Virus record (IMG/VR): IMGVR_UViG_3300034093_001947
Length of the DNA stretch: 64,000 nt
Reading direction: 5' to 3' (one strand)
Source of the DNA: a virus
Lineage: Duplodnaviria; Heunggongvirae; Uroviricota; Caudoviricetes
Shown here: piece by piece, positions 16,332 through 39,491 of the stretch
Layout of the letters: each line of letters opens with the position of its first letter
Position numbering within the stretch: position 1 is the first letter of the stretch
The notes under the pieces: generated by a model
Database searches by the model: none
What the model was told of the DNA's origin: nothing
The model's input: only the letters and a program-made list of their open reading frames with translations
Position numbers and translations under genes: made by a program

Positions 16332-16718
16332 TATACGGTGTTGCCATTCTTCAACGCTGCCTGGATAACGCCAAGCCCACACAGCACACAGCATCATAAA
16401 CAATCCTGTGCCTGCTACCGCTTTCCAATTATAGGTAGTAAACCAAATAATTAGTAAGCTACAATCCATAGTAATGAACATGGCCCATTTGGCCTTAGTG
16501 GGGAACACACGCTTCTCGCCCCAGTTGCTCAAGAACGGTCCAAATAACTTGTGATTCATAATCCAGTTGTGCATACGTTCGCTTCCTCTAGCAAAACAGA
16601 ATGCGGCAATCACTGTGGGAGTCGACCACGGGATACCCGGAGTTACGATTCCGATGTAGGCAATGCCTAGGAATATAAATCCCAGTGTTACCCAAAATGC
16701 TTTTTTAATTTTATTCAT
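16299..16718 (-). CDS. YbaN/DUF454-like inner-membrane protein
   Basis: Four hydrophobic helices and an N-terminal FWVTLGFIFLGIAYIGIVTPGIP motif typical of the YbaN family. Confidence 0.5.
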   Translation of the reverse strand: MNKIKKAFWVTLGFIFLGIAYIGIVTPGIPWSTPTVIAAFCFARGSERMHNWIMNHKLFGPFLSNWGEKRVFPTKAKWAMFITMDCSLLIIWFTTYNWKAVAGTGLFMMLCAVWAWRYPGSVEEWQHRISNGLKVGWFK

Positions 16719-17908
16719 AATATTTCCTTTAAACTTCGTGTTAGATAATCAATGTCTGCTTCTGTGTGATTAGGAGTTGGAGTTGCACGAAGTCGTTCTG
16801 CACCCCAAGGTACCGTTGGATAGTTGATGGGCTGAAGATATATAGCACGTTCTTCTAATAGCCAGTCACTGATATGTTTGCATTTTCTAGCATCGCGAAT
16901 CATAATAGGAACAATGTGCGTATCACCTGGCATCACGTCGATATCGTTTGACAATAAATGTTCTTTAGTTTGTTGTGCTACATTAAAAATTCGTGTTCTA
17001 AGTTCAGGATGATCTGCAACGTACTTAACACTGGCCAATGCCCCGGCACATAGTACCGGGCTCATGGATGTGCTAAAGATAAAGCCTTGTGCATAACTGC
17101 GTACCATATCAATTAAGTCACGCCCGGCGGCAATATAGCCTCCTTGAACTCCGTAGGCTTTGGCCAGTGTTCCTTGAAACACGTCAACACCTTCTACGCA
17201 TCTCTGCTCTTCGGCAACTCCGGCACCGCGACTGCCATATAGTCCTACAGCATGTACTTCGTCAACATAAACCATTGCACCGTATAATCGAGCAATATCA
17301 CAAACATCACTAATCAGTCCTTTATCTCCGTCCATAGAATATACACCTTCCATTGTAATGATAGGTTGTGCGTCAATAGACATAGTCTGTAGTATTTCTT
17401 TTAAGTGTGCAAGATCATTGTGTCGCCAAACTGTAACAGGTGCTTGACTGCTTTTCATTCCTACAATCATACTGTTATGATTATTACTATCACTAATGTA
17501 ATGTGCTCCGGGTATCATGCGACCCATAACACTCAATGCAGCTTGATTGGCCACATATCCGCTAGTGAACAATAACGCACTGGTCTTGTCATGCAGCTTG
17601 GCTAACTCCCATTCAAGTGCTACATGATAATGTGTAGTTCCTGAAATGTTTCGTGTGCCTCCCGAACCTGCACCTGCTGTATCTAATGCTGTGTGCATTG
17701 CGTCCAATACTACTTTGTGCTGGCCCATGCCCAAGTAGTCATTTGAGCACCAGTTGGTTATGTGTTTGATATTGTATTTGCCATAGTAAACCGCTTTCGG
17801 AAATTCTCCTCGTTCACGAAGGATATCAGTGAATACTCGATAATTTCCTTCAGTCTTGAGTTTTTCCAAACTCTGTCCTATAGCGTCTTGTGTTTTTGGC
17901 TTTATCAT
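16715..17908 (-). CDS. hemA: 5-aminolevulinate synthase (PLP-dependent alpha-oxoamine synthase)
   Basis: The N-terminal YRVF…RERGEFPKA and NDYLGMGQH blocks, the GTLAKAYG lysine block and the DEVHAVG block align with Rhodobacter HemA (YRTF…REKGAFPKA, NDYLGMGQHP, GTLGKAYG, DEVHAVG) along the whole length. Confidence 0.75.
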   Translation of the reverse strand: MIKPKTQDAIGQSLEKLKTEGNYRVFTDILRERGEFPKAVYYGKYNIKHITNWCSNDYLGMGQHKVVLDAMHTALDTAGAGSGGTRNISGTTHYHVALEWELAKLHDKTSALLFTSGYVANQAALSVMGRMIPGAHYISDSNNHNSMIVGMKSSQAPVTVWRHNDLAHLKEILQTMSIDAQPIITMEGVYSMDGDKGLISDVCDIARLYGAMVYVDEVHAVGLYGSRGAGVAEEQRCVEGVDVFQGTLAKAYGVQGGYIAAGRDLIDMVRSYAQGFIFSTSMSPVLCAGALASVKYVADHPELRTRIFNVAQQTKEHLLSNDIDVMPGDTHIVPIMIRDARKCKHISDWLLEERAIYLQPINYPTVPWGAERLRATPTPNHTEADIDYLTRSLKEIL

Positions 17909-17949
17909 AATGTTAGTATTTAACCATATAAATATTCAAAAGGTAAGCA

Positions 17950-18978
17950 ATGGCTAAAACAACTGAAATTGAATTTGACGGTAAAGACATAGTGCTGTTA
18001 GACGACGATTTAAACTACACTACGCATACAGTAGAATCTGTATTAAGTAAAGATCTGTCATTTTGGAAGGGCTGGCATTGTGCAATTGGCCTTCGATCGC
18101 TCTATATTGATTATGAAGGAAATGTAGTACGAGGAACCTGCAGGGAAGGTGGGGTAGTTGCTAACGTATACAAGAAATCCATTCCGTTAGACATTGCAAT
18201 AGGTAATAAATGGACAGTTTGCGGAAAGCAGATATGTTCTTGCGGTGCAGATATGGCTGTGCCTAAGGTAAAGCATCAAGAAAGCATACTGAGATTTTTT
18301 GATTCTAATAAAATTAGAGAATTCGATCTTAACTACAAATTGCCCAAAGTAGACGCAGAAGTTGTATATTCAACCAACTACAATTATAAAACCATAACAT
18401 GGGCCATAGGCCGTAGATGTAACTTTGACTGCTGGTATTGTCCAGAAAGCGATCACAATAACTTTGAAGCACACAAAGATTACGACACTTTGATGTCTGC
18501 TTACAATATATTATCAACTCAATGGATCAAAGGTGAACCTACTAAGTTCAGTATGCTAGGCGGAGAACTGACTGTATATAAAGACTATCTGCCATTTGTT
18601 AAAACCTTAAGAAAAGACGGTCATGGATCTATCACTACAACAAACGGTAGTAGAGATGCTGCCTATTATGCAGAGCTGGCACAGGTTAGCGATCTATGCT
18701 TTAGTTTACATTTGAATTACTTAAAAACTTTAGGGATTGAAAAGTTTGTAAAAAGTATAGATGCTGCTATTCGAAATAAGGCTGAGAATTTTATTCGAAT
18801 CCGCTTAATGGTAGACCCGGGTAATTTGGAATATGCTAAAGAAGTACACGAAATACTATTAGAAAAGTTTAATGGTCGTTGCCTAATCGCTATCAAACCT
18901 GTCCATGACACACAAGGTAAATTATTTCCATACGAGCCAAAAGAGATCATTTGGATACAAAACCCTATTGACAAATAG
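17950..18978 (+). CDS. radical SAM domain protein
   Basis: CNFDCWYC (CxxxCxxC) cluster after about 150 residues. Confidence 0.55.
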   Translation: MAKTTEIEFDGKDIVLLDDDLNYTTHTVESVLSKDLSFWKGWHCAIGLRSLYIDYEGNVVRGTCREGGVVANVYKKSIPLDIAIGNKWTVCGKQICSCGADMAVPKVKHQESILRFFDSNKIREFDLNYKLPKVDAEVVYSTNYNYKTITWAIGRRCNFDCWYCPESDHNNFEAHKDYDTLMSAYNILSTQWIKGEPTKFSMLGGELTVYKDYLPFVKTLRKDGHGSITTTNGSRDAAYYAELAQVSDLCFSLHLNYLKTLGIEKFVKSIDAAIRNKAENFIRIRLMVDPGNLEYAKEVHEILLEKFNGRCLIAIKPVHDTQGKLFPYEPKEIIWIQNPIDK

Positions 18979-19020
18979 CATTCTTAATGCTATACTTGTT
19001 TATCAACATAGGAGAATTCC

Positions 19021-19581
19021 GTGAACAGTGAAATTATGCAACGTTGGATGGAAATGGTTCAGTTTCGAATCACTGAAGGCAGTGATTACGGTTGGCAGTG
19101 TTTTGGTTATAATGCCTATACACTATCATCATGGGATGGCGATCAAGCTGGCACTAGTTTTAATATTACCTTTGACACAAAGGATCAAACAGTTTTTATG
19201 ATAGAAGCTCACGACTTCTCAAATGATCGTGCCTATCGTTGGATTGATCCTACTCATCAATCTCAGTTTACGCAAGAAGTTTCAAATCGCGGCATAACTG
19301 ATGAGGCTTGGGAAGATGTTCAATATGTAGATCTCGAAGTAGTTGACGACTGGTTTGAAAAAGCCACTGCTATATATAACGGAGAGCCGTATGATCAACG
19401 AGTCCAGATGCCAGTTGACTTTAGTGACGAAGAGTTGTTAAAGTATATGAAGCTGGCACACGAACGTGATATGACTTTCAACCAGTTTGTAGAAGAAGCT
19501 CTGCGAGCTGCCATTGAAGATTACAATCGTGACCCGGAGGGTACGAAGCAACGGGCAAAGGATTTTGTACGTGGCAAATGA
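19021..19581 (+). CDS. hypothetical protein
   Basis: ORF only. Confidence 0.45.
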   Translation: MNSEIMQRWMEMVQFRITEGSDYGWQCFGYNAYTLSSWDGDQAGTSFNITFDTKDQTVFMIEAHDFSNDRAYRWIDPTHQSQFTQEVSNRGITDEAWEDVQYVDLEVVDDWFEKATAIYNGEPYDQRVQMPVDFSDEELLKYMKLAHERDMTFNQFVEEALRAAIEDYNRDPEGTKQRAKDFVRGK

Positions 19582-19888
19582 ACTGGCAAAATATCTAAAC
19601 AGTCGCCGACGACATAAGGACGAGTCTGCTATTAAAAAACAGACCAAGATTGCTAAACAGCACAGAGTAAGCGAATACAATCCTGGTGAAGTTAAGCAAC
19701 CACATCGTTTCAATAAACGGCATGCAATGGACTGTGGTAACCCAGAATGCTTTATGTGCGGTAATCCACGCAAAACGCACAAAGACAAATTAACTACACA
19801 AGAAAAGCGTCTATTCCAAGATGTGGAAAAGACTTCCGATCGACACAGTAACGGATTGCCTCCAGATGACAAAGAAGATATACTATGA
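19571..19888 (+). CDS. hypothetical basic Cys-rich small protein
   Basis: GTG start with an AAGGA RBS, chosen because the long ATG start overlaps the upstream gene by 68 nt. Has a CGNPECFMCGNP motif. Confidence 0.35.
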   Translation: MANELAKYLNSRRRHKDESAIKKQTKIAKQHRVSEYNPGEVKQPHRFNKRHAMDCGNPECFMCGNPRKTHKDKLTTQEKRLFQDVEKTSDRHSNGLPPDDKEDIL

Positions 19889-20330
19889 GAAAGTTGGCCG
19901 CCGGTATATTCCAGTAGCCGAATATGATAACATGTTGCTAGACAGTTTCCCGAAAGGTGACCACCTAGTTATGTGTTACCCTGGTGGATCTAGCCGCAGA
20001 TTCAACATCGATCCACACTATGCACCTATGATTGCGGCTGGCCGTGTTGCTGAAGATGCTATCAGTAAAGCAGTGGTCAAAGCCAGCGAGATGCGTCCCC
20101 ACCGTACACCCATTACTGAGAAGCAACGTAAGGCTTGGGAATCTCTGGCCAAAGCATTTGACAATGATCGCTACTACATTGAAATCCCTAGTGCAAGAGA
20201 AATTGCCGAAGCGGGAGTTAAAGCAATGATTGATGAAGCCGACAAACTAATGGAGCACGAAAGTGTACGCAAAGCCTACGATCATTTCCAACTAATGTGT
20301 AAATTGGTTAAAGAAAACGAACGTGAATGA
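19868..20330 (+). CDS. hypothetical protein
   Basis: Internal ATG chosen to reduce the overlap; no motif. Confidence 0.35.
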
Positions 20331-21103
20331 CTCGCTTTTTATTATTGATGCTAGTTTGCGGATCTGTTTGGGCTAAACCGTTACCTCAAAGTGTGTTGCT
20401 GTACAACGATACTACCGGACACCACCTAATTCAATCTAATGCAGACACTGTTCGTCCTATTGCCAGTATTACTAAACTAATGACTGCTATGGTTACGTTA
20501 GATTATGACAAAGACCTTACCCGCACATTAAAATCTGCAGGCAAAGTCGGAGGAATACTGCCTCGAGGTACGTGGACACGAGGAGAGGTGATGCACGCCA
20601 TGTTGATTCGCAGTGACAACGATGCTGCCGAAACATTAGCAGCAGATTACCCCGGAGGTCGCAGTGCCTTTTTGGCAGCTATGAACGCTAAGGCTATATT
20701 ACTCAATATGCCTAACGCTAATTTTGGAGATCCGAGTGGACTCGATTCTAAGAATGTTACAACATTGCTCGGAGTTAAACGCTTACTGTTGGCAAGTTCA
20801 GAGTATCCTATTATCCGAGAAATTAGTGTAAAGAAACAGGCATTGTTTGATCATCGATTTAAAAAGAAAATACGTAAGATCGAATTACCAAATACCAACA
20901 AAGAATTATTATTTGAGTTTGACAATATTGTTGTGACTAAAACAGGACTAACTAATCCTGCAGGTTGGTGTTTAGGTATGGTTGTAGAACAGGGTGGACA
21001 AAAATATGTCATAGTAATTTTAGGTGCTAGAAATAAATTAGAGCGACTTAAAATTGCCAAAGAAATCATGTACAATAACATAACAGATACGGATTTGCGA
21101 TGA
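20327..21103 (+). CDS. D-alanyl-D-alanine carboxypeptidase (serine peptidase S11 / low-MW PBP-like)
   Basis: Signal peptide, SITK (SxxK), SDN (SxN) and KTG motifs in the canonical order and spacing. Confidence 0.7.
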   Translation: MTRFLLLMLVCGSVWAKPLPQSVLLYNDTTGHHLIQSNADTVRPIASITKLMTAMVTLDYDKDLTRTLKSAGKVGGILPRGTWTRGEVMHAMLIRSDNDAAETLAADYPGGRSAFLAAMNAKAILLNMPNANFGDPSGLDSKNVTTLLGVKRLLLASSEYPIIREISVKKQALFDHRFKKKIRKIELPNTNKELLFEFDNIVVTKTGLTNPAGWCLGMVVEQGGQKYVIVILGARNKLERLKIAKEIMYNNITDTDLR

Positions 21104-21288
21104 TATTAGTTGATCACGAGTATCATGTTGTTGAGTTACACACATTTAAGATACCACCTGCAGAAATGTTTGAGTGGCTACAACTTAAATTCGGTCCGGG
21201 TGACGGTTACCGTTGGATGTACAAGCATCCTAAAATTTATTTTGCAGATCCAAAAGATCACATGATGTTTTTGTTGAGGTGGTCATGA
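21100..21288 (+). CDS. MF[LI]LRW-family small protein, tandem copy 1
   Basis: Ends …DPKDHMMFLLRWS; ATGA overlap with the neighbours. Confidence 0.55.
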   Translation: MILVDHEYHVVELHTFKIPPAEMFEWLQLKFGPGDGYRWMYKHPKIYFADPKDHMMFLLRWS

Positions 21289-21506
21289 ATCGTACTCACT
21301 TGGATTATGAAGTATTTCTAGACTCCGGACTACACAATAAGGCAGGACGATGGTGTGCCCAACAGTTCGGACAGCGTTGGGAAGTAATAGGTTTTCAATC
21401 CGGGCGTTGGTCAATGTTTTGGGGCGGAAGAGATAGCCCGGGCAAGTATAGATTTTGTTTTGCCCATGAGCAAGACAAGCTGATGTTTATGTTGAGGTGG
21501 TCATGA
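21279..21506 (+). CDS. MF[LI]LRW-family small protein, tandem copy 2
   Basis: …AGRWCAQQFGQRWE…HEQDKLMFMLRWS; start embedded in GAGGTGGTCATGAAT. Confidence 0.55.
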   Translation: MVMNRTHLDYEVFLDSGLHNKAGRWCAQQFGQRWEVIGFQSGRWSMFWGGRDSPGKYRFCFAHEQDKLMFMLRWS

Positions 21507-21820
21507 ATATTGAACAAAGTGTAATTAACGAAGCAGCTCGCCAAATGGCTAAAGCTATTGACGATGAGTTACTAATGACCACAATGGGGTGGCACAAACT
21601 AGAACTAAGCGAAGGTACTGTTTACGGTTCTCGATATCTAACTGTACATCCTAACAACGGCTGGCACTGGAATGAAATGATGGATTGGACAGTAAAGACA
21701 TTTGGACCCACAGCACACGACGGAGTCTGGACACCTAACATGCGTTGGTATGCTAACAATGCTAAATTTTGGTTCCGAAATGAAAAGGATCGTACAATGT
21801 TTATTCTGAGGTGGGCATAA
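21497..21820 (+). CDS. MF[LI]LRW-family small protein, tandem copy 3
   Basis: …MMDWTVKTFGPTAHDGVW…FRNEKDRTMFILRWA. Confidence 0.55.
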   Translation: MVMNIEQSVINEAARQMAKAIDDELLMTTMGWHKLELSEGTVYGSRYLTVHPNNGWHWNEMMDWTVKTFGPTAHDGVWTPNMRWYANNAKFWFRNEKDRTMFILRWA

Positions 21821-22092
21821 TGGCCAGTATTAATACTATTATTGGCAGTGCTGAAACAGAGCCCGAAATCCAGCCAATGCAAACTGGCAAGGCCAAAGGT
21901 TGGATTGGTGAGTATCATTGGGTTAGTCTTCCTGTTACTGATCAAAACAAATACGAAAACACAACTGAGTTAGCCACTGAATGGTGTCGAGATCAGTTTG
22001 GTAAGAGTGGTGCTCGTTGGTTTGAAAAAGAACGTAAATTCTATTTCAAAAGTGAGAAGGACATGACTATGTTTATTCTGAGGTGGTCGTGA
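21811..22092 (+). CDS. MF[LI]LRW-family small protein, tandem copy 4
   Basis: …LATEWCRDQFGKSGARWFEKERKFYFKSEKDMTMFILRWS. Confidence 0.55.
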   Translation: MGIMASINTIIGSAETEPEIQPMQTGKAKGWIGEYHWVSLPVTDQNKYENTTELATEWCRDQFGKSGARWFEKERKFYFKSEKDMTMFILRWS

Positions 22093-22322
22093 GTGATACA
22101 GCAAGCTGGATTACATTTGGTAAAGAACGGTATTGGCAACATCCAGACATGGAACAATGGTGCCACGAACATGTAGGAACCGGTGGTTGGTCCTATCAGA
22201 CTCCTGAAACTTGGGAAGGCATGAATGGTAAGATTTGGGTCATGCATAGTATGTTTGGTAATACTACATTTGCCTTCAAGGATGCTAAACATTTAACAAT
22301 GTTTTTATTAAGGTGGTTATAA
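22083..22322 (+). CDS. MF[LI]LRW-family small protein, tandem copy 5
   Basis: …MEQWCHEHVGTGGW…FAFKDAKHLTMFLLRWL; GTG start embedded in GAGGTGGTCGTGAGT. Confidence 0.5.
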   Translation: MVVSDTASWITFGKERYWQHPDMEQWCHEHVGTGGWSYQTPETWEGMNGKIWVMHSMFGNTTFAFKDAKHLTMFLLRWL

Positions 22323-22386
22323 TGGAGTTGACAAAATTAAAAAAATTTGTTAAAGTATTAGATAAACATACAGAAAGAATTTTATC

Positions 22387-22605
22387 ATGACTATGGATCA
22401 AGCAGCGACCTGGTTAGCAGGCAGTATTTTAACAATGTTAGGTTTTATTGTAGTAATTGGTGCAGTATTGGTAATCAACAATCTACTGCATAAGTATTGG
22501 AAACCAGTGCAATTCTTTAAATGGGCAGAACATCCTTCTACTCGTTTTATGACGGAAGAAGAAACTACAAAGATTGCACCAGTAATAGACCAACAGAATA
22601 AATGA
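22387..22605 (+). CDS. small membrane protein
   Basis: Single strongly hydrophobic helix (LAGSILTMLGFIVVIGAVLVI). Confidence 0.4.
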   Translation: MTMDQAATWLAGSILTMLGFIVVIGAVLVINNLLHKYWKPVQFFKWAEHPSTRFMTEEETTKIAPVIDQQNK

Positions 22606-22612
22606 TAAATAC

Positions 22613-22864
22613 TTGATGCAGATTTCCGAATTGCTTTTTGAACTAGACTTTCAGGGTAGCCCCTGCACTAAAGATTGTAGTGGGCACAGTGCTGGATATG
22701 CATGGTCCATGAAACACGCTAACAAAAATTGCGATTCAAAAAACGCCAGCTTTAACAATGGCTGCAACATTGCAAAAAAGCAGATTGCCAGCAAGAATAT
22801 TAAAAAGCCAGTGGTGTCACAAACTACAAAACCTAGTGATCAGCCTGCAGAGGAGCCAGTATGA
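22613..22864 (+). CDS. hypothetical protein
   Basis: ORF only. Confidence 0.35.
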   Translation: MMQISELLFELDFQGSPCTKDCSGHSAGYAWSMKHANKNCDSKNASFNNGCNIAKKQIASKNIKKPVVSQTTKPSDQPAEEPV

Positions 22865-23076: not shown

Positions 23077-23112
23077 ATTGGTAAAATAATCACTTTACAA
23101 CAGGAAAGAAAA

Positions 23113-23150: not shown

Positions 23151-23178
23151 TTGCGTACATTATTCAAAGGATTTTTGA

Positions 23179-24201
23179 ATGTCAAAAAAATATGATACCC
23201 TTGTCCTCATCGGACGTTTTCAACCGCTTCACTCAGCTCACTTAGAGATTATCAAGCGAGCCACAGCACTAACTGATCAACTTGTGATCATCTGCGGTAG
23301 TGCTAAACAACCCCGAACTTATAAAAACCCATTTACATTCGATGAACGTGCTCGAATGATCAAGTCAGCAACTGCTGGACTTGCTATGCAGATCTATGTT
23401 GAGCCAAATATTGACACTATCTATAACGATCAGGCATGGGCTGTTCGTGTCCAAGGTATTGTTTCTAAATACCGTGTACTAGGTGGTGCCGGAGTGGGCA
23501 TTATCGGTCATAAAAAAGATGACAGCTCATTCTACTTGGATATGTTCCCACAGTGGGGCTATGAAGATGTTGAATTAGTAGAATTCCTCAGTGCTGTAAA
23601 CATTCGCGATCTCTACTTCAAGCGTGATGTCAATATGAAGTTCATTAAAGGTGTAGTGCCAGAGTCTACTTTAGACTTTTTGGAGCAGTTCCGCACCACA
23701 GATCAATACGAACAGATCATCCGCGAACGTGAGTTCATCATAGAACACAATAAACAATATGCTGGATTGAAGTATCCTCCGATCTTCTCAACTGCTGATG
23801 CTGTGGTTATCTGCTCAGGACATGTATTAATGATTCGTCGTCGTGCTGAACCCGGTAAAGGATTGTGGGCATTGCCAGGCGGCTATGTTAACGCCAATAC
23901 GGATAAAAGCGTAGAGGATGCAGCCATTCGTGAACTGCGTGAAGAAACACTAATTAAAGTTCCTGCTCCGGTGTTGCGTGGTAGTATTAAACGTAGTAAG
24001 GTCTTTGATGCAGTTGACCGTAGTCCGCGAGGTCGTATTATCACTCACGCATTCCACATTGAACTGCCTGACGGCGAGCTGCCAAAGGTAAAAGGCGGCG
24101 ATGATGCTGAAAAAGCACGTTGGGTTCCTATTGCCGAAGTTCGCAGTGAAGAATGTTTCGAAGACCACTACGAAATCATACAACACTTCTTGGGAGCATA
24201 A
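23179..24201 (+). CDS. nadM: bifunctional NMN adenylyltransferase / Nudix hydrolase (NadM-Nudix type)
   Basis: N-terminal archaeal-type NMNAT motif LIGRFQPLHSAH, and a C-terminal Nudix box GGYVNANTDKSVEDAAIRELREETLI (G-x5-E-x7-REuxEExGu). Confidence 0.8.
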   Translation: MSKKYDTLVLIGRFQPLHSAHLEIIKRATALTDQLVIICGSAKQPRTYKNPFTFDERARMIKSATAGLAMQIYVEPNIDTIYNDQAWAVRVQGIVSKYRVLGGAGVGIIGHKKDDSSFYLDMFPQWGYEDVELVEFLSAVNIRDLYFKRDVNMKFIKGVVPESTLDFLEQFRTTDQYEQIIREREFIIEHNKQYAGLKYPPIFSTADAVVICSGHVLMIRRRAEPGKGLWALPGGYVNANTDKSVEDAAIRELREETLIKVPAPVLRGSIKRSKVFDAVDRSPRGRIITHAFHIELPDGELPKVKGGDDAEKARWVPIAEVRSEECFEDHYEIIQHFLGA

Positions 24202-24202
24202 T

Positions 24203-25390: not shown

Positions 25391-26830
25391 ATGAAACTCG
25401 CAAAAAATCTTATCCTGAACACAGACTCGTACAAAGTCTCGATGTTCAAACAATACCCAGCAGGAACCACAGGTGTATATTCATATATTGAATCACGCGG
25501 TGGGCGTTACGATAGAACTGTATTCTTCGGACTACAGGCTTTTATCAAGGAATACCTACTTGCACCCATCACACAAGCAGATATTGACATTGCTGAAGAA
25601 ATTCTTACCCTACACGGTGAACCCTTTAACAGAGAAGGATGGCAGTATATTCTTGACCAGCACCAAGGATTCTTGCCCGTTGTTATCCGAGCAGTCCCTG
25701 AAGGAACTATTGTCCCTGTCAAAAACGTACTCGCTACCATTGAGAATACCGATCCAAAATGTTATTGGTTGACCACTTGGTTGGAAACTGCTCTGCTTCG
25801 TGCAGTGTGGTACGGTACTACTGTGGCAACACAAAGCTGGAAAATTAAACAAGTCATTCTTGACTACTTGGAGCGTACAGGTGACCCTACTACTATTGAT
25901 TTTAAACTGCACGACTTTGGTGCTCGCGGTGTATCTAGCCTCGAAAGTGCTGGGATCGGTTCTGCGGCTCACCTCGTTAACTTTATGGGAACGGATACCA
26001 TTACTGGTATTCTTTACGCTCGTGAGTATTATGGAGCTGGCATTGCTGGGTTTTCTATTCCTGCTGCCGAACATAGCACAATCACTTCTTGGGGTCGCGA
26101 CGGTGAAGTAGATGCTTACAGAAATATGCTTACTCAGTTCGCTCGTCCCGGTACTATCCTCGCTGTTGTTAGTGATAGTTACGATATCTACAACGCAGCC
26201 TCTAAGCTCTGGGGCGAAGAACTTCGCCAACAAGTTATCGATAGTGGTGCTACTGTTGTCATTCGCCCTGATAGCGGCGATCCTGTTGAAGTCAACCGTA
26301 AGCTAGTTGAGATCCTTGGATCCAAGTTCGGATACACTACTAACAGCAAAGGCTTCAAAGTCCTGAACAACGTCAGACTGATCCAAGGTGACGGTATTAA
26401 CGAACTTACTGTTCGCAGTATCCTCGGTGCGTTCATGGCCATGGGCTGGAGTGCCGATAACATTGCTTTTGGTATGGGCGGTGCTCTGTTACAGATTGTA
26501 GATCGTGATACTCAACAATTTGCAATGAAGTGCTCTGCAATGAGCCGTACTGTTAGAGTTGAAGATGGTGATCTCGGATCTGGTTTTAAAACTGAATGGT
26601 TTGATGTGATCAAAGACCCAGTCACTGATCCTGGCAAGAAGTCTAAGGCAGGCCGTGTTACACTGTGGACTAACAGTGGTGGCGAGTTTGCATCAGGGGT
26701 AACTGAACCTACTGGTTGGACTGATCGGGGAATCGGCGGGTGGACCAACGCACTGGTTCCAGTTTACTGGAACGGCAACCTGCACAAAGATTACACCTTT
26801 GAGGAAGTTCGAGCTAACGCTCGCAAATAA
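25391..26830 (+). CDS. nadV: nicotinamide phosphoribosyltransferase (Nampt/NadV)
   Basis: The N-terminal LILNTDSYKVSMFKQYP matches the Nampt N-terminus. Further Nampt-family blocks include …HDFGARGVSS… and …GGALLQ…; 479 aa. Confidence 0.85.
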   Translation: MKLAKNLILNTDSYKVSMFKQYPAGTTGVYSYIESRGGRYDRTVFFGLQAFIKEYLLAPITQADIDIAEEILTLHGEPFNREGWQYILDQHQGFLPVVIRAVPEGTIVPVKNVLATIENTDPKCYWLTTWLETALLRAVWYGTTVATQSWKIKQVILDYLERTGDPTTIDFKLHDFGARGVSSLESAGIGSAAHLVNFMGTDTITGILYAREYYGAGIAGFSIPAAEHSTITSWGRDGEVDAYRNMLTQFARPGTILAVVSDSYDIYNAASKLWGEELRQQVIDSGATVVIRPDSGDPVEVNRKLVEILGSKFGYTTNSKGFKVLNNVRLIQGDGINELTVRSILGAFMAMGWSADNIAFGMGGALLQIVDRDTQQFAMKCSAMSRTVRVEDGDLGSGFKTEWFDVIKDPVTDPGKKSKAGRVTLWTNSGGEFASGVTEPTGWTDRGIGGWTNALVPVYWNGNLHKDYTFEEVRANARK

Positions 26831-32530: not shown

Positions 32531-32533
32531 AAA

Positions 32534-32836: not shown

Positions 32837-33141
32837 TCAGTTTAAATTTTAACATTCGAAATCCCTGGAGTAACACATTTAAGAATTTGTGGTGTACAAG
32901 TTTTGTCACTCTCTTTAAGAACAAATTTATTGAACTAGAAGTTACTAGAGATTCCACCCTAGTGTCTTTTATGTTTAATTGGACCATTAGGCAAAGTCAC
33001 GCAGGCTTAGATTTAGAAGTCGGCCTGTTTGGATATAATGTACATTTTCAGTTATATGACAATCGCCACTGGAATACAGAAACAGGATGTTGGGTAATGT
33101 ATGACGAAATATCCGGAGAGTCAAATGGGCAATCAAACTGA
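32833..33141 (+). CDS. hypothetical protein
   Basis: ORF only. Confidence 0.35.
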   Translation: MISLNFNIRNPWSNTFKNLWCTSFVTLFKNKFIELEVTRDSTLVSFMFNWTIRQSHAGLDLEVGLFGYNVHFQLYDNRHWNTETGCWVMYDEISGESNGQSN

Positions 33142-33370
33142 TTACTTTAATAAAATTGGATATAAACACACTTATGACATCGGTGATCGTGTCATAGGTA
33201 AATGGCATAAGATTCCATTTGTAGGAACTGTGGGTAACGACCGCTTGATTAATCATATTACTGGTCCAGAAGTAACTATACACTTAGATCTACCCTTTAA
33301 ATATCAAGACAAAATTTATAATTTTATCATTGTAAAGCATAAAGATATTAGGCGGCTTAAAGAGCTATGA
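33101..33370 (+). CDS. hypothetical protein
   Basis: ORF only. Confidence 0.35.
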   Translation: MTKYPESQMGNQTDYFNKIGYKHTYDIGDRVIGKWHKIPFVGTVGNDRLINHITGPEVTIHLDLPFKYQDKIYNFIIVKHKDIRRLKEL

Positions 33371-34062
33371 CATATGAATGGAATGATATATTAATTGTAG
33401 GGGATAGTTTTTGTGCAGACCGCACTGAGAAAAGTGACTGGCCAAATATATTTACATCTTCCCTTACAGGTCAGCTATTTCATCCTACTCTACAAGTTAG
33501 GGGTGAAGGATTCAAGGGTGCAAGCTGGTGGTCGGCTAGGAAAAAACTATTAGTAGAACTAAAACACAGACCTGTAAAAGTTTTGGTTGTTTGTCATACA
33601 GAACCTTACAGAATTCCAAACGATCGAGGACTGGGTATTAATACATTAAGTGTCGAAACTAAGAATATAACAACTCCTCCCGGTGTTGAGAAACCTTCTG
33701 AAAATTTTATCAAAGCAGCCCTTGGGTATTACGAATATATTATATCCGAAAAATATCATCTTTGGGCATACCAACAATGGTTTAATGAAATAGATAAAAT
33801 TGCCGTCGACAATAACATAGAAAAAGTTATACACTTCTTTTGTTTTCGGGGAGACTATAATAATCATACTTTTGCCAGAGGAGTTACTATAGAAACTCCG
33901 TTAATCGATCTGCAACAATATTCAGCATTGTGGAAAAAGAACGATACTAGGAATCACTTTCCACCCTTACAAAATTCAGAGTTCGGTGATAAGTTAGCAG
34001 GTATAATAAAAAACTATCCCGGAGACGGTGTAAGATTAAATATCAAGTTAATAGGAAAATGA
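33367..34062 (+). CDS. SGNH/GDSL-like hydrolase
   Basis: N-terminal ILIVGDSFCAD (GDS block). Confidence 0.4.
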   Translation: MTYEWNDILIVGDSFCADRTEKSDWPNIFTSSLTGQLFHPTLQVRGEGFKGASWWSARKKLLVELKHRPVKVLVVCHTEPYRIPNDRGLGINTLSVETKNITTPPGVEKPSENFIKAALGYYEYIISEKYHLWAYQQWFNEIDKIAVDNNIEKVIHFFCFRGDYNNHTFARGVTIETPLIDLQQYSALWKKNDTRNHFPPLQNSEFGDKLAGIIKNYPGDGVRLNIKLIGK

Positions 34063-34063
34063 A

Positions 34064-34423
34064 ATGACACAACTTAAAGGACTGGTTCCAAAAGGTTGGG
34101 GCTCGGAATTTATCTGGGCCACAAACGACAAGTATTGCGGCAAGTTTATGAACTTTAACGCGGGTGCAAAGTTCAGTATGCACTTCCATAAAGACAAAGA
34201 AGAAACTTGGTATATACAAAGTGGCAAGTTTCTTGTTCGATGGATTGATACTAAGACTGCTGAATTATACGAAAAAGAATTGCGTGATGGTGCAGTATGG
34301 CACAATACACCCTGTATGCCACATCAACTAGAGTGTATCGAAGCCGGAACTGTTATCGAAGTATCCACACCAGACAGCGTGGAAGACAACTACCGTGTAG
34401 GCAAAGGCGACAGTCAAAAATGA
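34064..34423 (+). CDS. cupin-fold protein (sugar epimerase/isomerase-like)
   Basis: …FSMHFHKDKEETWYIQSGKF…WHNTPCMPHQLE… shows cupin His motifs; adjacent to heptose-activating genes. Confidence 0.45.
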   Translation: MTQLKGLVPKGWGSEFIWATNDKYCGKFMNFNAGAKFSMHFHKDKEETWYIQSGKFLVRWIDTKTAELYEKELRDGAVWHNTPCMPHQLECIEAGTVIEVSTPDSVEDNYRVGKGDSQK

Positions 34424-34818
34424 CTCGAGTCATGGTAAATGGTACGTTTGATATTCTGCATCGCGGCCACCTCGAATTATTAAACTTTGCCAGAAGCAAA
34501 GGAGACACTCTACTAGTTGCTATTGATACTGATCGAAGAGTGAAAGAATTAAAAGGCGATGCTCGTCCCATTAACAATCAAGAAGATCGTAAATTTCATT
34601 TAGAAAATCTAAAGGCTGTTGATGGGGTAATGTTATTTGACAGCAAAGAAGAACTAATTGAGATTATGAAGGGTTGGGAGCCTGACATTTATGTAAAGGG
34701 CAGTGACTGGAAATCTAACTCTGGAACTGCACACCAATATTCAAAAGAAGTAATTTATTATGACAGAGTCGGCGAATACTCAACAACCAATATCATACAA
34801 CGTATTGCTGATCGGTGA
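34420..34818 (+). CDS. cytidylyltransferase-fold sugar-phosphate nucleotidyltransferase (HldE domain II / RfaE-like heptose-1-P adenylyltransferase)
   Basis: MVNGTFDILHRGHLELL (HxGH nucleotidyltransferase motif); start moved to the ATG at 34420 (ATGA overlap). Confidence 0.6.
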   Translation: MTRVMVNGTFDILHRGHLELLNFARSKGDTLLVAIDTDRRVKELKGDARPINNQEDRKFHLENLKAVDGVMLFDSKEELIEIMKGWEPDIYVKGSDWKSNSGTAHQYSKEVIYYDRVGEYSTTNIIQRIADR

Positions 34819-35542
34819 TAGTTGTACTGATATCTATAATATAGGTACAGTAGATAGATTGAGCCCGGAGGCTCCTGTACCTGTTGTTAAAATTGTAGAA
34901 ACATTTTCACTGCCTGGTATGAGTGCAAATGTCCATAGTAATTTAGTACATCTAAATATTGAACCAGATTTTATACACAACGAAACTTCTATTACCAAAA
35001 CTAGATTCATAGATAAAAGGTCAGGTCAACATCTGCTTAGAGTTGACGATGAAGATGATGTTGTTCAATGGTCTGGCAGAACTACTGAGCCACTAGAGTC
35101 ATATGATGCTATTGTGATCTCAGATTACAATAAAGGATTCTTAACCTATGAGCACATTGAAAGAATTATAGGGTCGGTAAAATGTCCAGTGTTTATAGAT
35201 ACAAAGAAACAAGACTTGTCAAGATTTAGGGCAGATCATTGCTATGTTAAAATTAACGAAACTGAATACAAAAATAGATTCAGTGTTCCAAAAAATTTAA
35301 TTGTTACATTAGGGGATCGCGGAGCACAATATAAAGATCAATTGTATCCAACTCAGTCAGTTGAAGTCATGGATGTGTGCGGTTGTGGGGATACATTTTT
35401 AGCCGCACTAACTGCTGAATATCTATACACAAAAGATATAGAAAAAGCTATAATATATGCAAACAAGGCGGCTAGTATTACTGTGCAACATCGCGGAAAT
35501 TATTCACCCACTTGTGAAGAAATCTCGAAAATCTCGGGATAA
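34760..35542 (+). CDS. PfkB-family carbohydrate kinase (HldE domain I-like heptose-7-P kinase)
   Basis: N-terminal VLLIGDSCTD and a C-terminal DVCGCGDTFLAAL (ribokinase-family GAGD motif). Confidence 0.6.
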   Translation: MTESANTQQPISYNVLLIGDSCTDIYNIGTVDRLSPEAPVPVVKIVETFSLPGMSANVHSNLVHLNIEPDFIHNETSITKTRFIDKRSGQHLLRVDDEDDVVQWSGRTTEPLESYDAIVISDYNKGFLTYEHIERIIGSVKCPVFIDTKKQDLSRFRADHCYVKINETEYKNRFSVPKNLIVTLGDRGAQYKDQLYPTQSVEVMDVCGCGDTFLAALTAEYLYTKDIEKAIIYANKAASITVQHRGNYSPTCEEISKISG

Positions 35543-35623
35543 ATAAATTTGTAGGACGCCGTTAGGGTTCTACAAATGGGGAATAGTTCCCCACAATGTT
35601 CTTGCTTATTAAGGAGAAAAACA

Positions 35624-36055
35624 ATGAACGCACTTTCACGCTTTGACACAACAGCTCTACAACATCTGAATAGAGCACTTATCGGATTCAATCGTATTTC
35701 AAACGATTTCGAAAACCGACACGTAAATTCCACAACAAACTATCCGCCTTATAATGTCATTCAACGTGACGAAAATAACTTTGAAATCGAAATCGCAGTA
35801 GCAGGTTTTGACAAAGAAGATATTACAGTTGCAGTTGACCAGGATCAATTAATCATCAAAGGTAACCGTACTAAAGATGAAGATTCGGAAAAGTACATTC
35901 ACCGCGGACTGGCTGCTCGTGATTTTGAACGGGCGTTTACGCTTGTAGATCACGTAGAAGTGGGCGATGCTGAGTTGACAAACGGCATTCTTCGTGTTAA
36001 ACTTACACGAGTAGTACCTGAAGCACTCAAGCCTCGTTTGATTGCCATCAAGTAA
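35624..36055 (+). CDS. small heat-shock protein (Hsp20/alpha-crystallin family, IbpA-like)
   Basis: …PPYNVIQRDENNFEIEIAVAGFDKEDITV…LIIKG… alpha-crystallin domain; start set at MNALSRFD. Confidence 0.65.
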   Translation: MNALSRFDTTALQHLNRALIGFNRISNDFENRHVNSTTNYPPYNVIQRDENNFEIEIAVAGFDKEDITVAVDQDQLIIKGNRTKDEDSEKYIHRGLAARDFERAFTLVDHVEVGDAELTNGILRVKLTRVVPEALKPRLIAIK

Positions 36056-36090
36056 GTTCAGGGGCTCCGGCCCCTTTTTAGAAAGTCTAT

Positions 36091-36399
36091 ATGGCAAATA
36101 CCAAAACTAAAGATATTGTTGATATTGAAGAAGATTTTGACATTGTAACACCCGGCATGTACAAAGTGATTGTACTAAATGATGATCACACCCCAATGGA
36201 TTTTGTCATTGCATTATTGATGCATGTGTTTAAGCACAACGAATCTAGTGCAAAAGAAATAACAATGCGAGTACATGAACAGGGTGCAGGTGTTGCCGGT
36301 GTTTATACTTACGAAGTTGCAGAACAAAAAGGTGTAGAAAGCACAATGCTTGCTAGACAAAATGGTTGGCCACTAGCTGTTAGAATCGAAGAAGAATGA
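36091..36399 (+). CDS. clpS: ATP-dependent Clp protease adaptor ClpS
   Basis: …MYKVIVLNDDHTPMDFVIALLMHVFKH…EITMRVHEQGAGVAGVYTYEVAE… is the classic ClpS core. Confidence 0.8.
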   Translation: MANTKTKDIVDIEEDFDIVTPGMYKVIVLNDDHTPMDFVIALLMHVFKHNESSAKEITMRVHEQGAGVAGVYTYEVAEQKGVESTMLARQNGWPLAVRIEEE

Positions 36400-37622
36400 A
36401 ACAATACGCCGTTACTGGAATAGGAATCATTAATGGGCTAGGTGCAAGTGTTCAAGAAAACTGGAAAAATCTGTTAGCAGGAGAAACTGCAATTAAACAG
36501 ATCAAATGGCCTGAAGATAATCCGACAAAATTTCCAAGAACACATAAATCTTTAATTGTCTCTTCTGGAGCACCGTGTCCGTTACCTGCGTTTGAAGAAG
36601 CAGAATTTGGAGGGCATCACCAGTATTGGGATCCGTGTGTTAAAATATCAATGCACACTGCTAGAGATGCTATCAGAGACAGCAATCTTACTAGCAAAAA
36701 TGTTTCAGTAGTGTTTAGTACCACTGGTGGAAGTTTACATAGTAGAGCATACATGATGCGACAACTAGAAGATGGCCGCGAAAGAGTTTCACCAAGGCAG
36801 GTAATACAAGCAACTGCGGATTACATTAGCGGATTGATTGCTAGGATATACGAATGCAACGGTGGTTCAACTTCGATGCACTCTGCATGTTCAACTGGAC
36901 TAACTGGTATTGATTATGCTATTAAGCAACTAGAATTTAATGACGATCTCGATGCTGTCATTGTGGGAGGTGCCGACGTACCCATTGAAGGCTTCCAAGT
37001 ATACTACTTTCAAAATCTCGGTGCATTAAGTTTACAACCAGCAGAAATTGCCAGTAGACCTTTTGACAAAGATAGATCAGGATTTGTAGCAGGAGAAGCT
37101 GCTGGCACACTAATTATCGAACCGTTAGATAAAGCCAAAGCACGGGGTGCAAAGATTTACGGAATAATCAAGTCTGTGGGAATTGCCACAGCTGGTAATA
37201 ATGATACTGCCCCAGATAAAAACGGTGACGCTGCAAAGTTAGCAGTAACCAGAGCAATAAAACAAGCAGGCATACAGTTAGCCGATGTCGGATATATTAA
37301 TGCACACGCTACCGGAACTAAAGTCGGAGATGACATTGAATTTTATGCCATGCGTGAGTTGTTGCCAGGCACAACAATGACGGCAAATAAAGGACAAATT
37401 GGACACACGTTGGCTGCAAGCGGAATTGTTGAAACTATCTACACTGTGTTAGCACTACGAGATCAAATATCACCCCCTACTGTAAATTTAACTAACCCAA
37501 TTGATGTAGGAATCAATATTCCTACCAAGGCCACGGTGATTGCAACTAAGTATGCAATAAAGAACAATTTTGCATTCGGCGGCAGGGCTGCTTGTGCAGT
37601 ATTAGAACGTTACGAGGATTAA
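36396..37622 (+). CDS. beta-ketoacyl-[ACP] synthase (KAS I/II-like condensing enzyme)
   Basis: Active-site Cys block …SMHSACSTGL…, His blocks …INAHATGT… and …GQIGHTLAASG…, and a thiolase fold of about 400 aa. Confidence 0.75.
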   Translation: MKQYAVTGIGIINGLGASVQENWKNLLAGETAIKQIKWPEDNPTKFPRTHKSLIVSSGAPCPLPAFEEAEFGGHHQYWDPCVKISMHTARDAIRDSNLTSKNVSVVFSTTGGSLHSRAYMMRQLEDGRERVSPRQVIQATADYISGLIARIYECNGGSTSMHSACSTGLTGIDYAIKQLEFNDDLDAVIVGGADVPIEGFQVYYFQNLGALSLQPAEIASRPFDKDRSGFVAGEAAGTLIIEPLDKAKARGAKIYGIIKSVGIATAGNNDTAPDKNGDAAKLAVTRAIKQAGIQLADVGYINAHATGTKVGDDIEFYAMRELLPGTTMTANKGQIGHTLAASGIVETIYTVLALRDQISPPTVNLTNPIDVGINIPTKATVIATKYAIKNNFAFGGRAACAVLERYED

Positions 37623-38174
37623 ATGAGTCTTAAAGAATTAACAGCAGAAAATCACGATCGTGCAGAACACACACCTTTTATGAAGGCAGTGTTTGCAAAG
37701 ACATTACCCAGAGAAATATGGACAGACTGGACTTTACAAAAGTCCTTATTTTACGGTGCAATCGAAGGTGCAGCCGGTGCTAACAGATTACTAGGCGACT
37801 TGCCCGATCTGCGTAGAGAATTTTATCTAAACATGGACTACAATGAGATGAACGGGCAAAATCCTCGTCACTCATATCGCCCATTGGTTATTGATTATTA
37901 CAACTATATATTAAGCATCAGTCAAGATCCTAATAAGGTTATGGCACATTTATATGTGTGGCATATGGGAGATATGTTCGGCGGACAAATGATTAAGAAG
38001 ATTGTTCCGGGTCCGCATCGCAATTTAGAATTTGAAGATGCTAACACATTAAAAACTAACATTCGTGCTAAGTTAGATGACAGCATGGGCGACGAAGCCA
38101 ATGTAGCTTTTGAATGGGCTATCAAAATTATGGAGTCATATAACAATGAGCTTGGTCTGGAACAGTCTAATTGA
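37623..38174 (+). CDS. heme oxygenase
   Basis: N-terminal LKELTAENHDRAEHTPFMKAVF matches the HO proximal-helix motif L…T…H…E…FMK. Confidence 0.6.
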   Translation: MSLKELTAENHDRAEHTPFMKAVFAKTLPREIWTDWTLQKSLFYGAIEGAAGANRLLGDLPDLRREFYLNMDYNEMNGQNPRHSYRPLVIDYYNYILSISQDPNKVMAHLYVWHMGDMFGGQMIKKIVPGPHRNLEFEDANTLKTNIRAKLDDSMGDEANVAFEWAIKIMESYNNELGLEQSN

Positions 38175-38826
38175 TATACAAACTGAGTTTGAAAGACAAT
38201 TCAATCTCAGTGGTACAGAAGTACAAGAGCCGGGCTTAGAAAGATTCAGTTGGTACAACAAAGTCTGGACCAGTAGCTTATATCGCAGAGCACACATCGA
38301 TGTAGTAGATGCTAGAGAAACCAAGGGCCTATGGATGATGCATTGCTGTGTGTTTCCGCATACTCATAATCCTGCACCTATCTTTGGATTTGATGTAGTA
38401 GCTGGCAAAAACAAAGTAACAGGTGCGTTTCACGACTTTAGTCCTGCTGGTGATCCAGAGCATCCGATGCTAGATTATTTTGCAGACGAAGCACAAAAAT
38501 TAGAGTGGAACAAAGTTAGACGTTTGCCCGACTGGGCAGAGCGTATCTTTACTCCTAGCATGATCAGTGCGGGAAACGTTAACGATCCAACTGAGCTTCA
38601 ACAACTGTATTTTACTGCTATTAATAACTTAAAGCATTTCATTAACACAGTAGGCGAGACAAACGGAACTGCATTAGACACTGGTCCTGCACAGGATTAC
38701 TATTGTGAAAATCAAAGACAGAATCCCCATACTCCTAAAGTAATGACTGCATTGGGTTTGAATCCAGAAGACGTTCGTGTGTTTATACAGGACTGCCTGT
38801 TTCCTAAGATAGGAACACATCAATGA
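38146..38826 (+). CDS. ferredoxin-dependent bilin reductase (PebA/PebS/PcyA family), copy 1
   Basis: …WYNKVWTSSLYRRAHIDVVDARE…LWMMHCCVFPHTHNPAPIFGFDVVAGKNKVTGAFHDFSP… FDBR core; start at MSLVWNS with a GGAG RBS. Confidence 0.65.
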   Translation: MSLVWNSLIDIQTEFERQFNLSGTEVQEPGLERFSWYNKVWTSSLYRRAHIDVVDARETKGLWMMHCCVFPHTHNPAPIFGFDVVAGKNKVTGAFHDFSPAGDPEHPMLDYFADEAQKLEWNKVRRLPDWAERIFTPSMISAGNVNDPTELQQLYFTAINNLKHFINTVGETNGTALDTGPAQDYYCENQRQNPHTPKVMTALGLNPEDVRVFIQDCLFPKIGTHQ

Positions 38827-39491
38827 GCACAGTATGGACACAGATGCAGCAGTGTGCTGAAACTATGCAGGCCATGATGGAACATGCAGGGTACAGAGCA
38901 GAAGATCCTAGTTTAGATCAATACGACTGGGAAAATCATGTATACCATAGTAATCTGTTTCGTAGAGGACACGTGGAAGTAGTAGACAAGACTACAACAC
39001 ACGGAATATACATCCTACATGCAACAGTATTCCCACACCCAGACGATCCTAGTCCTATCTGGGGTTTTGATGCTGTCTGCGGCAAGAACAAGATCACAGG
39101 TGCGTTTCATGATTTTAGTCTAGTAAGCAAAAGCCATTGGTTGCACGACTGGTTTGCAGATACTGTAAAAGACGTAACTTGGAACAAGAAACGAGAATTA
39201 CCCGGGTGGGCTCGTAATATTTTTAGCCCTGCTATGGTAGCAGCGGGTAATATTAGCGAGCAGCACGAGTTAGATAATATTATAGATCTAGGAATTAAAA
39301 CCCTAGATTACTATCTACACAATGTAGGAGATCGCATTAACGGGGTCGATGTTACTGACCAACAAAATTACTACTGTCAAAATCAGAAACAAAATCCCCA
39401 TGTGTATCGCAGCATGATTGCTATGGGAGTGCCGGAAGCAACTATCCGACAGTTTGTTGAGCAAGTGCTGTTCCCTGAAATTGGTAAATAA
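38823..39491 (+). CDS. ferredoxin-dependent bilin reductase, copy 2 (paralog)
   Basis: …WENHVYHSNLFRRGHVEVVDK…LHATVFPHPDDPSPIWGFDAVCGKNKITGAFHDFS… runs parallel to copy 1. Confidence 0.65.
   Translation: MSTVWTQMQQCAETMQAMMEHAGYRAEDPSLDQYDWENHVYHSNLFRRGHVEVVDKTTTHGIYILHATVFPHPDDPSPIWGFDAVCGKNKITGAFHDFSLVSKSHWLHDWFADTVKDVTWNKKRELPGWARNIFSPAMVAAGNISEQHELDNIIDLGIKTLDYYLHNVGDRINGVDVTDQQNYYCQNQKQNPHVYRSMIAMGVPEATIRQFVEQVLFPEIGK

Follow-up and report, generated by a model that had tools for sequence, protein, structure and literature searches.

What does a phage gain from encoding the entry enzyme of heme synthesis together with enzymes that open heme and reduce the resulting bilin, and what do two bilin reductases make when they stand side by side? 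These questions are raised by a 64,000-nt stretch of T4-like phage DNA from an uncultured phage (IMG/VR record IMGVR_UViG_3300034093_001947), referred to below as the window. It encodes a viral 5-aminolevulinate synthase (ALAS; vAlaS), a short heme oxygenase (HO; vHemO), and two ferredoxin-dependent bilin reductases (FDBR1 and FDBR2). An earlier note on this DNA had drawn attention to the combination. One speculative reading, less likely than not as a whole, is that the two FDBRs are functionally different. FDBR1 would be a phycoerythrobilin (PEB) synthase, and FDBR2 a PcyX-derived enzyme that re-acquired a PcyA-type glutamate and makes phycocyanobilin (PCB) or another bilin. Two bilins would be made from phage-boosted heme in one, probably non-photosynthetic, cell. 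In this reading, the FDBR2 type would represent a large FDBR subfamily, the commonest companion of valaS among the lake-type contigs examined, and a small DUF454 membrane protein would be a partner of vAlaS.

FDBR1 (38146..38826, plus strand) contains 226 residues and FDBR2 (38823..39491, plus strand) contains 222. They score 56.4 and 50.4 bits, respectively, on the Pfam family PF05996, whose cutoff is 31. The start codon of FDBR1 is most likely the ATG at 38146 rather than the TTG at 38110, because the gene is called in this way in a related contig with the same gene array (L196) and because the N termini of homologs agree with this start. Its 5′ end overlaps the end of the vHemO gene by 29 nt, and the start of FDBR2 overlaps the stop of FDBR1 by 4 nt. 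The two proteins are mutually homologous, as had been proposed. They share 41% identity over 219 columns, which marks them as old paralogs rather than products of a recent duplication.

In the PDB, the best match of both reductases is PcyX (5OWG), with 223 bits for FDBR1 (PcyA, ~54) and 155 bits for FDBR2 (PcyA, ~50). No PebS, PebA, or PebB structure in the PDB matches either protein at E ≤ 0.01. Both also fall under the PcyA equivalog cutoff of NCBIfam (NF002760), scoring 87.1 and 74.7 bits against 206. The E-values behind the four tetrapyrrole genes run from 1e-13 to 1e-160, which excludes chance.

A neighbor-joining tree combined the FDBRs of 180 fetched loci with reference sequences that Wegner et al. 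(2024, Nat Commun 15:8783, PMC11480375) give in their supplement. The phage PcyX-like sequences, including FDBR1 and FDBR2, form one group in 100/100 bootstraps. This group is apart from cyanobacterial PcyA and from the PCB-making enzymes of Bradyrhizobium and CB_2, a peat-bog phage from Crystal Bog. With 100/100 bootstraps, FDBR1 lies within a large PcyX clade that is probably of freshwater origin, and FDBR2 constitutes its own clade inside PcyX (94/100). A PebB sequence roots outside all window-type FDBR sequences. The earlier note had described the pair as PebA/PebB- or PebS/PcyX-like and had called for phylogenetic placement. With both proteins in the phage PcyX clade, the PcyX part of that description stands, and a PebA/PebB pair or a PebS is ruled out by the PDB matches and the tree.

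The active sites of the two enzymes differ. Residues are numbered after the PcyX of Pelagibacter phage Mosig EXVC030M, which reproduces the published positions 55, 67, 69, and 86. FDBR1 carries Asp55, Met67, His69, and Asp86, the signature of every characterized PcyX. FDBR2 carries Glu55, Ile67, His69, and Asp86, the signature of PcyA from Nostoc PCC 7120. The catalytic pair His69/Asp86, the kind of residues on which the earlier note had staked its assignment, is thus preserved in both proteins. In Synechocystis PcyA numbering, the triad Glu76/His88/Asp105 is complete in FDBR2, and FDBR1 has an aspartate in place of Glu76. Glu76 of PcyA is needed to reduce the 18-vinyl group and hence for PCB formation, and PcyX, with an aspartate at this position, makes PEB (PMC13446030; PMC10151467). 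FDBR1 is classifiable as a PcyX, with PEB as its most likely product. FDBR2 is a relative within the PcyX clade and not a typical PcyX, as it lacks Asp55. Because of the glutamate at the position of PcyA Glu76, FDBR2 plausibly makes a different bilin, perhaps PCB.

The pair can be compared with characterized reductases. PcyX of marine phages, represented by 5OWG and Mosig, is the best structural match of both FDBRs and shares with them the clade and His69 and Asp86. It shares Asp55 and Met67 with FDBR1, whereas FDBR2 has Glu and Ile at these positions. The Mosig PcyX is 49% identical to FDBR1 and 36% identical to FDBR2. In Mosig, a heme oxygenase gene lies directly 5′ of pcyX, as in the window, but the window FDBRs are not located in the neck-gene neighborhood found in Mosig. 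PcyA enzymes, including the ‘AX-clade’ enzyme of Bradyrhizobium ORS278 and the PCB-making CB_2 enzyme, have in common with FDBR2 the equivalents of Glu76/His88/Asp105, the triad by which PCB-making PcyA is defined. The window FDBRs are only 30-32% identical to the CB_2 and Bradyrhizobium PcyAs and are phylogenetically apart from them. Cyanophages with ho1, pebS, or pcyA genes likewise carry a heme oxygenase and a four-electron bilin reductase. However, cyanophage PcyA is just 23-31% identical to FDBR1, no PebS-type match was found, the window is devoid of photosynthesis genes, and a search of 50,697 deposited phage records turned up no counterpart of its ALAS.

A partial FDBR assigned to the single-cell genome ‘actinobacterium SCGC AAA041-L13’ in the supplement of PMC11480375 is 66% identical to FDBR1 and displays the PcyX signature. 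Its source may be an infecting phage or contamination rather than the actinobacterium.

Does FDBR2 make a second bilin, or does it duplicate FDBR1? It is possible, if short of probable, that FDBR2 is a redundant or drifted second PEB synthase, or a weakly active paralog, and that the pair adds dosage or robustness and no second product. Conservation among relatives argues against such redundancy. The Glu/Ile/His/Asp signature is kept in 117/120 of the closest metagenomic relatives of FDBR2, which span 51-98% identity, and retention of Glu55 over this range points to selection acting there. Sites where the FDBR1 and FDBR2 types differ, although each type on its own is at least 90% conserved, cluster at the active site (55, 66-68, 71, and 89). 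Moreover, an FDBR2-type enzyme is the sole FDBR in many lineages (L005-L008, L024, and L198), so the type is no degenerate extra copy.

Other features of FDBR2 weigh against a distinct product and are compatible with a second PEB synthase. FDBR2 is nested inside the PcyX clade and does not group with the PCB-making CB_2 and Bradyrhizobium enzymes. In addition to His69 and Asp86, it keeps a PcyX-type proline (Pro199) at the equivalent of PcyA Asp220. This proline is found in FDBR1, FDBR2, all 120 FDBR2 relatives, and PcyX, whereas the PCB-making PcyAs, in an alignment of cyanobacterial, CB_2, and Bradyrhizobium sequences, have Asp or Glu there. Single-residue changes in FDBRs affect regiospecificity unpredictably (PMC13446030), and one residue does not predict the product of FDBR2. 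The placement itself comes from a neighbor-joining rather than a maximum-likelihood tree, calculated over ~170 columns. Taken together, the chances that the FDBR2 product differs from that of FDBR1 appear roughly even. The FDBR2 type is in any case a large, conserved subfamily whose active site is intermediate between those of PcyX and PcyA, and it is thus well suited to testing how Asp55/Glu76 controls regiospecificity.

The substrate of the reductases would be supplied by vHemO (37623..38174, plus strand), a protein of 183 residues that scores 61.3 bits on PF01126 (cutoff, 23) but matches only profile positions 6-141 of 204. Its best PDB match is HmuO of C. diphtheriae (1IW0, 52 bits). The proximal histidine is conserved, with His11 equivalent to His20 of HmuO. 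The GDxxGGQ motif of the distal helix is also kept, reading GDMFGGQ in vHemO and GDLSGGQ in HmuO. A published vHemO from a lake phage, GROS_546, shares 58% identity with it. A heme oxygenase followed by two paralogous FDBRs at 37623-39491, as described before, is therefore borne out by Pfam scores above the cutoffs.

The HO and FDBR genes belong to a tightly packed array, ClpS-KAS-HO-FDBR1-FDBR2, where KAS is a β-ketoacyl-ACP synthase. The successive gaps are −4, 0, −29, and −4 nt. Abutting and overlapping genes of this kind suggest co-expression of the array, and FDBR1 and FDBR2 are probably coupled translationally to vHemO. The two FDBRs adjoin in this sublineage alone. Besides the window, five IMG/VR contigs and one ENA lake-style scaffold carry the HO-FDBR1-FDBR2 tandem. 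The window HO is 53-79% identical to HOs of FDBR2-type loci, versus 28-47% to those of FDBR1-only loci. The closer affinity to FDBR2-type loci suggests that FDBR1 was added later to a pre-existing HO-FDBR2 unit.

Published lake contigs display a related arrangement. FDBR2 is 60% identical to the FDBR of contig GROS21-1_SAMEA9560623. In GROS21-1 scaffolds with the same FDBR protein as SAMEA9560623, a 191-residue non-FDBR protein is encoded between HO and the FDBR2-type gene, the slot occupied by FDBR1 in the window. This protein (L198, 9426-10001; L199, 4329-4904) has a weak α/β-hydrolase match.

Several neighbors of the array are of separate interest. The KAS gene (36396-37622, plus strand) encodes a FabF-like enzyme with 281 bits on TIGR03150, under the equivalog cutoff, and ends with zero gap to the start of HO. 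The KAS-HO adjacency occurs just in the closest relatives (L028, L029, L110, and L196). A 4′-phosphopantetheinyl transferase-like gene is located 28 kb from KAS (8572-8877, plus strand). The phage also encodes protein quality-control components, all on the plus strand: ClpX (13096-14334), an IbpA-like small heat-shock protein (35576-36055), and the ClpS adaptor (36091-36399). HSP70 is encoded in the same neighborhood of the related GROS21-1 contigs (L198).

The entry enzyme is encoded at 16715..17908 on the minus strand. vAlaS is 397 residues long and is assigned as the entry enzyme of the Shemin (C4) pathway by TIGR01821. It scores 532.9 bits on this NCBIfam equivalog model, well over the cutoff of 338.55. 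By contrast, it remains under the cutoffs of the paralog models BioF (304.6 versus 426.45 bits) and Kbl (297.6 versus 460), and of the serine palmitoyltransferase models (186-232 bits, cutoffs 500-670). The closest solved structures are the bacterial ALASs 7X98 (419 bits) and 2BWN (415 bits). Human ALAS2 matches with 352 bits, and Kbl/BioF-type structures with 210 bits or less. Alignment to R. capsulatus ALAS (2BWN) shows that the lysine binding pyridoxal 5′-phosphate (PLP), K248, as well as H142, D214, and H217, are all kept. The motifs GTLAKAYG, SDSNNHNSM, and VDEVHAVG match 2BWN residue for residue. The assignment as ALAS at these coordinates thus holds, and the grouping with KBL or BioF that the earlier note had weighed against it is not observed. 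The product is a true 5-aminolevulinate synthase, with catalysis predicted from these residues.

In vAlaS, the heme-feedback residue His342 is replaced by a lysine, and the C terminus stops short of Cys400. Many vAlaS proteins are devoid of His342 and/or Cys400 (PMC11480375). With both residues lost, vAlaS should be insensitive to heme feedback and should push precursor into the host heme pathway whatever the heme level.

Related ALAS genes are present in 26 IMG/VR viral contigs, 24 of which encode proteins with 76-98% identity and the other two 58%. Beyond these, vAlaS matches more than 120 metagenomic protein clusters at 81-93% identity. An identical ALAS protein is indexed in 58 blocks of a public assembly collection, and contigs were read from several JGI and ENA samples. 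vAlaS is 84% identical to P0036, the vAlaS of GROS21-1_SAMEA9560623 (assigned through an exact N-terminal match). Over the first 112 residues compared, it is 83% identical to the experimentally validated vAlaS of CB_2. The best cellular relatives, identified by a pattern-based scan of GTDB representative genomes, are alphaproteobacterial ALASs with 47-49% identity. A tblastn search of the 50,697 phage records with the ALAS returned Kbl/BioF-type matches alone (26-35%), mostly in transduced or contaminating host DNA. By these identity levels and residues, rather than by an ALAS tree, the protein belongs to the vAlaS clade as delimited by Wegner et al. (2024): phage relatives are nearer than bacterial AlaS, and the feedback residues are lost. 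The window is therefore one more, apparently common, member of the published valaS phage group.

vAlaS and a DUF454 gene form a separate minus-strand unit ~20 kb from the HO/FDBR genes. The unit has a weak promoter-like site, and no terminator-like site was found for it. The DUF454 gene (16299..16718, minus strand) encodes a YbaN-like small membrane protein of 139 residues, which scores 99.5 bits on PF04304 (cutoff, 35.1). Between the vAlaS stop and the DUF454 start there is an overlap of 4 nt, and the two genes are taken to be translationally coupled. A DUF454 homolog lies directly 3′ of vAlaS on the same strand, with a gap of at most 92 bp, in 17/26 of the IMG/VR vAlaS loci (L002-L027) and within 10 kb in 22/26. 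The pair also occurs in the exact-match contigs L193-L195. Wegner et al. (2024; PMC11480375) do not mention it in their main text. Judged by linkage, the DUF454 protein possibly belongs with vAlaS as a functional partner. The literature on DUF454 offers just an induction by iron starvation in Avibacterium, too weak to use, and the linkage to vAlaS is the first functional lead for this domain.

On the other side of vAlaS, a radical SAM protein of 342 residues is encoded divergently after a 41-bp gap (17950-18978, plus strand). This neighbor is kept just in the closest relatives (L002, L004, and L193). It was considered as a HemN-like or BchE-like protein, and the candidate was dropped, since these models gave generic radical-SAM matches alone.

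How much of this gene set is new? The earlier note had presented it as an unusually complete entry-plus-exit set, and this claim to novelty does not survive comparison with the literature. In marine and freshwater phage contigs, valaS either joins hemO and pcyA/X in a three-gene cassette, lies near a pair of hemO and FDBR genes in a ‘broken cassette’, or occurs alone (Wegner et al. 2024, PMC11480375). The vAlaS of CB_2 makes 5-aminolevulinate (ALA) and complements an E. coli ALA auxotroph, and the CB_2 vHemO is active (PMC11480375). The CB_2 FDBR is a true PcyA making PCB, which was attributed to the absence of the PcyX-specific Asp55 (PMC11480375). ALAS, ho1, and pcyX-like genes in large freshwater phages had been listed earlier by Chen et al. 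(2020). A phage-borne set of entry, heme-opening, and bilin-reducing enzymes is thus already known, in the same combination and layout, from a 2024 publication that backed it in part by experiment.

The freshwater ‘broken cassette’ contigs CB_2 and GROS21-1 (Grosse Fuchskuhle) are the nearest published parallels. As in the window, hemO and the FDBR gene adjoin, and valaS is kilobases off on the other strand. The three functions are located on one large phage genome, both feedback residues are lost, and the guanine-plus-cytosine (GC) content is ~40%. The backbone order PfkB-HSP20-ClpS-HO-...-FDBR is shared as well. The window also differs from these contigs. First, its lineage has two FDBRs in tandem, versus one per contig in the table of Wegner et al. 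Second, the valaS-hemO distance is ~20 kb, versus 2-8 kb in most relatives. Third, the inserted FabF-like ketoacyl synthase separates ClpS from HO. A paralogous FDBR pair is not described in the text of that paper (PMC11480375). The tandem of diverged FDBRs and the vAlaS-DUF454 pair are the two features for which we found no published description. The added value is modest and comprises the lineage-specific coexistence of two diverged FDBRs in tandem, the FDBR2-type subfamily, and the linkage of DUF454 to vAlaS.

These enzymes can be arranged into a putative pathway. vAlaS would supply ALA free of heme feedback, and host enzymes would convert ALA to heme. vHemO, with its conserved catalytic residues, is predicted to cleave heme to biliverdin IXα, iron, and CO. 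The biliverdin would then be reduced by FDBR1 and FDBR2 in ferredoxin-dependent reactions, FDBR1 yielding PEB and FDBR2 a second bilin or the same one. Neither a ferredoxin nor further heme-pathway genes were found among ~85 of the ~100 open reading frames (ORFs) of at least 50 residues in the window, so the electrons would have to be drawn from a ferredoxin of the host or from one encoded in the part of the phage genome outside the window.

Two considerations temper this scheme. The enzymology of every step is deduced from conserved residues and published relatives, and vHemO is just 28% identical to the CB_2 vHemO, the sole tested viral freshwater HemO. No bilin-binding acceptor, such as a phycobiliprotein or a phytochrome, was recognised in the window, which also counts against bilins as the purpose of the pathway.

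Heme supply for respiration, iron release, and a bilin for a sensor are the candidate purposes. The first two could account for the genes without a pigment pathway: vAlaS would sustain heme cofactor for respiration, HemO and the FDBRs would serve chiefly to remove iron from heme and render biliverdin harmless in host cells short of iron, and bilin would be a by-product. Such roles of iron supply and heme-dependent respiration were discussed by Wegner et al. (2024; PMC11480375). The missing acceptor fits this explanation, as do genes for a FecR-domain protein, a peroxiredoxin, and a glutaredoxin nearby. We nonetheless consider it rather unlikely. Heme oxygenase alone suffices for iron release, yet one or two four-electron reductases are kept under selection, with catalytic residues conserved across hundreds of phage contigs. 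This argues that the reduced bilin itself matters. Furthermore, the acceptor search covered just the 64 kb of the window, and the whole genome is probably much larger.

The gene 3′ of FDBR2 was tried as a bilin acceptor and dropped as a phage backbone gene. It encodes a protein of 562 residues with a Pro/Ala-rich tail (39498-41186, plus strand) and is kept 3′ of the FDBR in many lineages. The protein has no Pfam or NCBIfam match. Its AlphaFold model, with a mean predicted local distance difference test score (pLDDT) of 72.6, has no significant PDB match. It matches uncharacterized proteins of the T4-like cyanophages ACG-2014f and S-RIM8 and is unrelated to the Mosig neck protein. The gene is probably part of the T4-like backbone.

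Are these genes indeed carried by a phage? The window has a GC content of 40.5% and contains ~100 ORFs, nearly all on the plus strand. It encodes rIIA (434 bits) and rIIB (263 bits), as scored with PHROGs, and phage-type genes of nucleotide metabolism, namely the small subunit of ribonucleotide reductase, ThyX, and dCMP deaminase. Fourteen tRNA genes, with Glu, Asp, and Lys among those represented twice, are clustered at 61367-63948 (plus strand) in a region otherwise devoid of long ORFs. No capsid, portal, or tail genes are present within the 64-kb window. The nearest rIIA in the 50,697 phage records is only 29% identical, and a megablast of 16000-40000 against these records found no related record; the phage is T4-like, albeit distantly so. 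In GC content, the ALAS and HO/FDBR regions equal the window average, which indicates long-resident phage genes.

A cellular origin, from a bacterial genomic island or a mis-binned contig, was also weighed. An island of Bradyrhizobium ORS278 holds hemO-pcyA-alaS (Wegner et al. 2024, PMC11480375), and one published contig was deposited under the name ‘Marinovum sp.’ Against this, the same 64 kb holds rIIA/rIIB, the phage-type nucleotide metabolism genes, and the 14-tRNA array, and the gene 3′ of FDBR2 resembles the T4-like cyanophage proteins. The nearest cellular ALASs in GTDB representative genomes reach just 47-49% identity, whereas the relatives come from IMG/VR viral contigs as long as 208 kb. 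Cellular DNA is accordingly very improbable. The phage origin assumed from the beginning is confirmed by these hallmark genes, the tRNA array, and the 26 viral contigs with related ALAS.

Its habitat is a different matter. The earlier note had set the genes beside those of marine phages, and this framing is probably wrong. The nearest published relatives are lake and peat-bog phages. Freshwater valaS contigs have a GC content of 38-42%, versus 30-38% for marine ones (Wegner et al. 2024, PMC11480375), and the 40.5% of the window falls in the freshwater range. The stretch is thus probably of lake, not sea, origin, an assignment based on GC content and relatives rather than on sample metadata. 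The window very likely comes from the large genome of an uncultured T4-like phage, probably a lake phage, that carries the already described viral tetrapyrrole gene set as a ‘broken cassette’.

The host had been proposed to be an alphaproteobacterium that makes ALA by the C4 pathway. This is unsupported. The pattern-based GTDB scan gave no host signal, returning just the distant alphaproteobacterial ALASs (47-49%) and non-ALAS paralogs. The alphaproteobacterial affinity of vAlaS reflects the origin of the gene, not the host. Wegner et al. (2024, PMC11480375) argue that a valaS gene would be useful in hosts of either ALA pathway and that non-alphaproteobacterial hosts are possible, for example the gammaproteobacterial Methyloparacoccus. 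Genes for CsgG/CsgF, a porin-like protein, and a heptose kinase-like protein in the window indicate a Gram-negative host and nothing narrower.

The curli secretion components are encoded at 41263-42661 (plus strand) and comprise CsgF, with a weak match, and CsgG, with 167 bits. Curli secretion genes have been reported in SAR11 myophages. Further downstream, the phage encodes a fusion of a CHASE2 sensor domain with a cyclase domain of the adenylate/guanylate type (136 and 55 bits; 48279-50333, plus strand), and the gene for the FecR-domain protein (43506-44621, plus strand) is near it. These two proteins suggest manipulation of host signaling. In addition, the phage carries an NAD salvage pair on the plus strand, composed of a NadM-like cytidylyltransferase-Nudix fusion (23179-24201) and a nicotinamide phosphoribosyltransferase (NAMPT; 25391-26830). 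A sugar-modification block is located on the minus strand at 53890-60271. It contains two epimerase/dehydratases, a methyltransferase, a transketolase-like fragment, a DegT aminotransferase, and a GT34-like glycosyltransferase. The GROS21-1 contig L198 carries a comparable block that includes NeuB.

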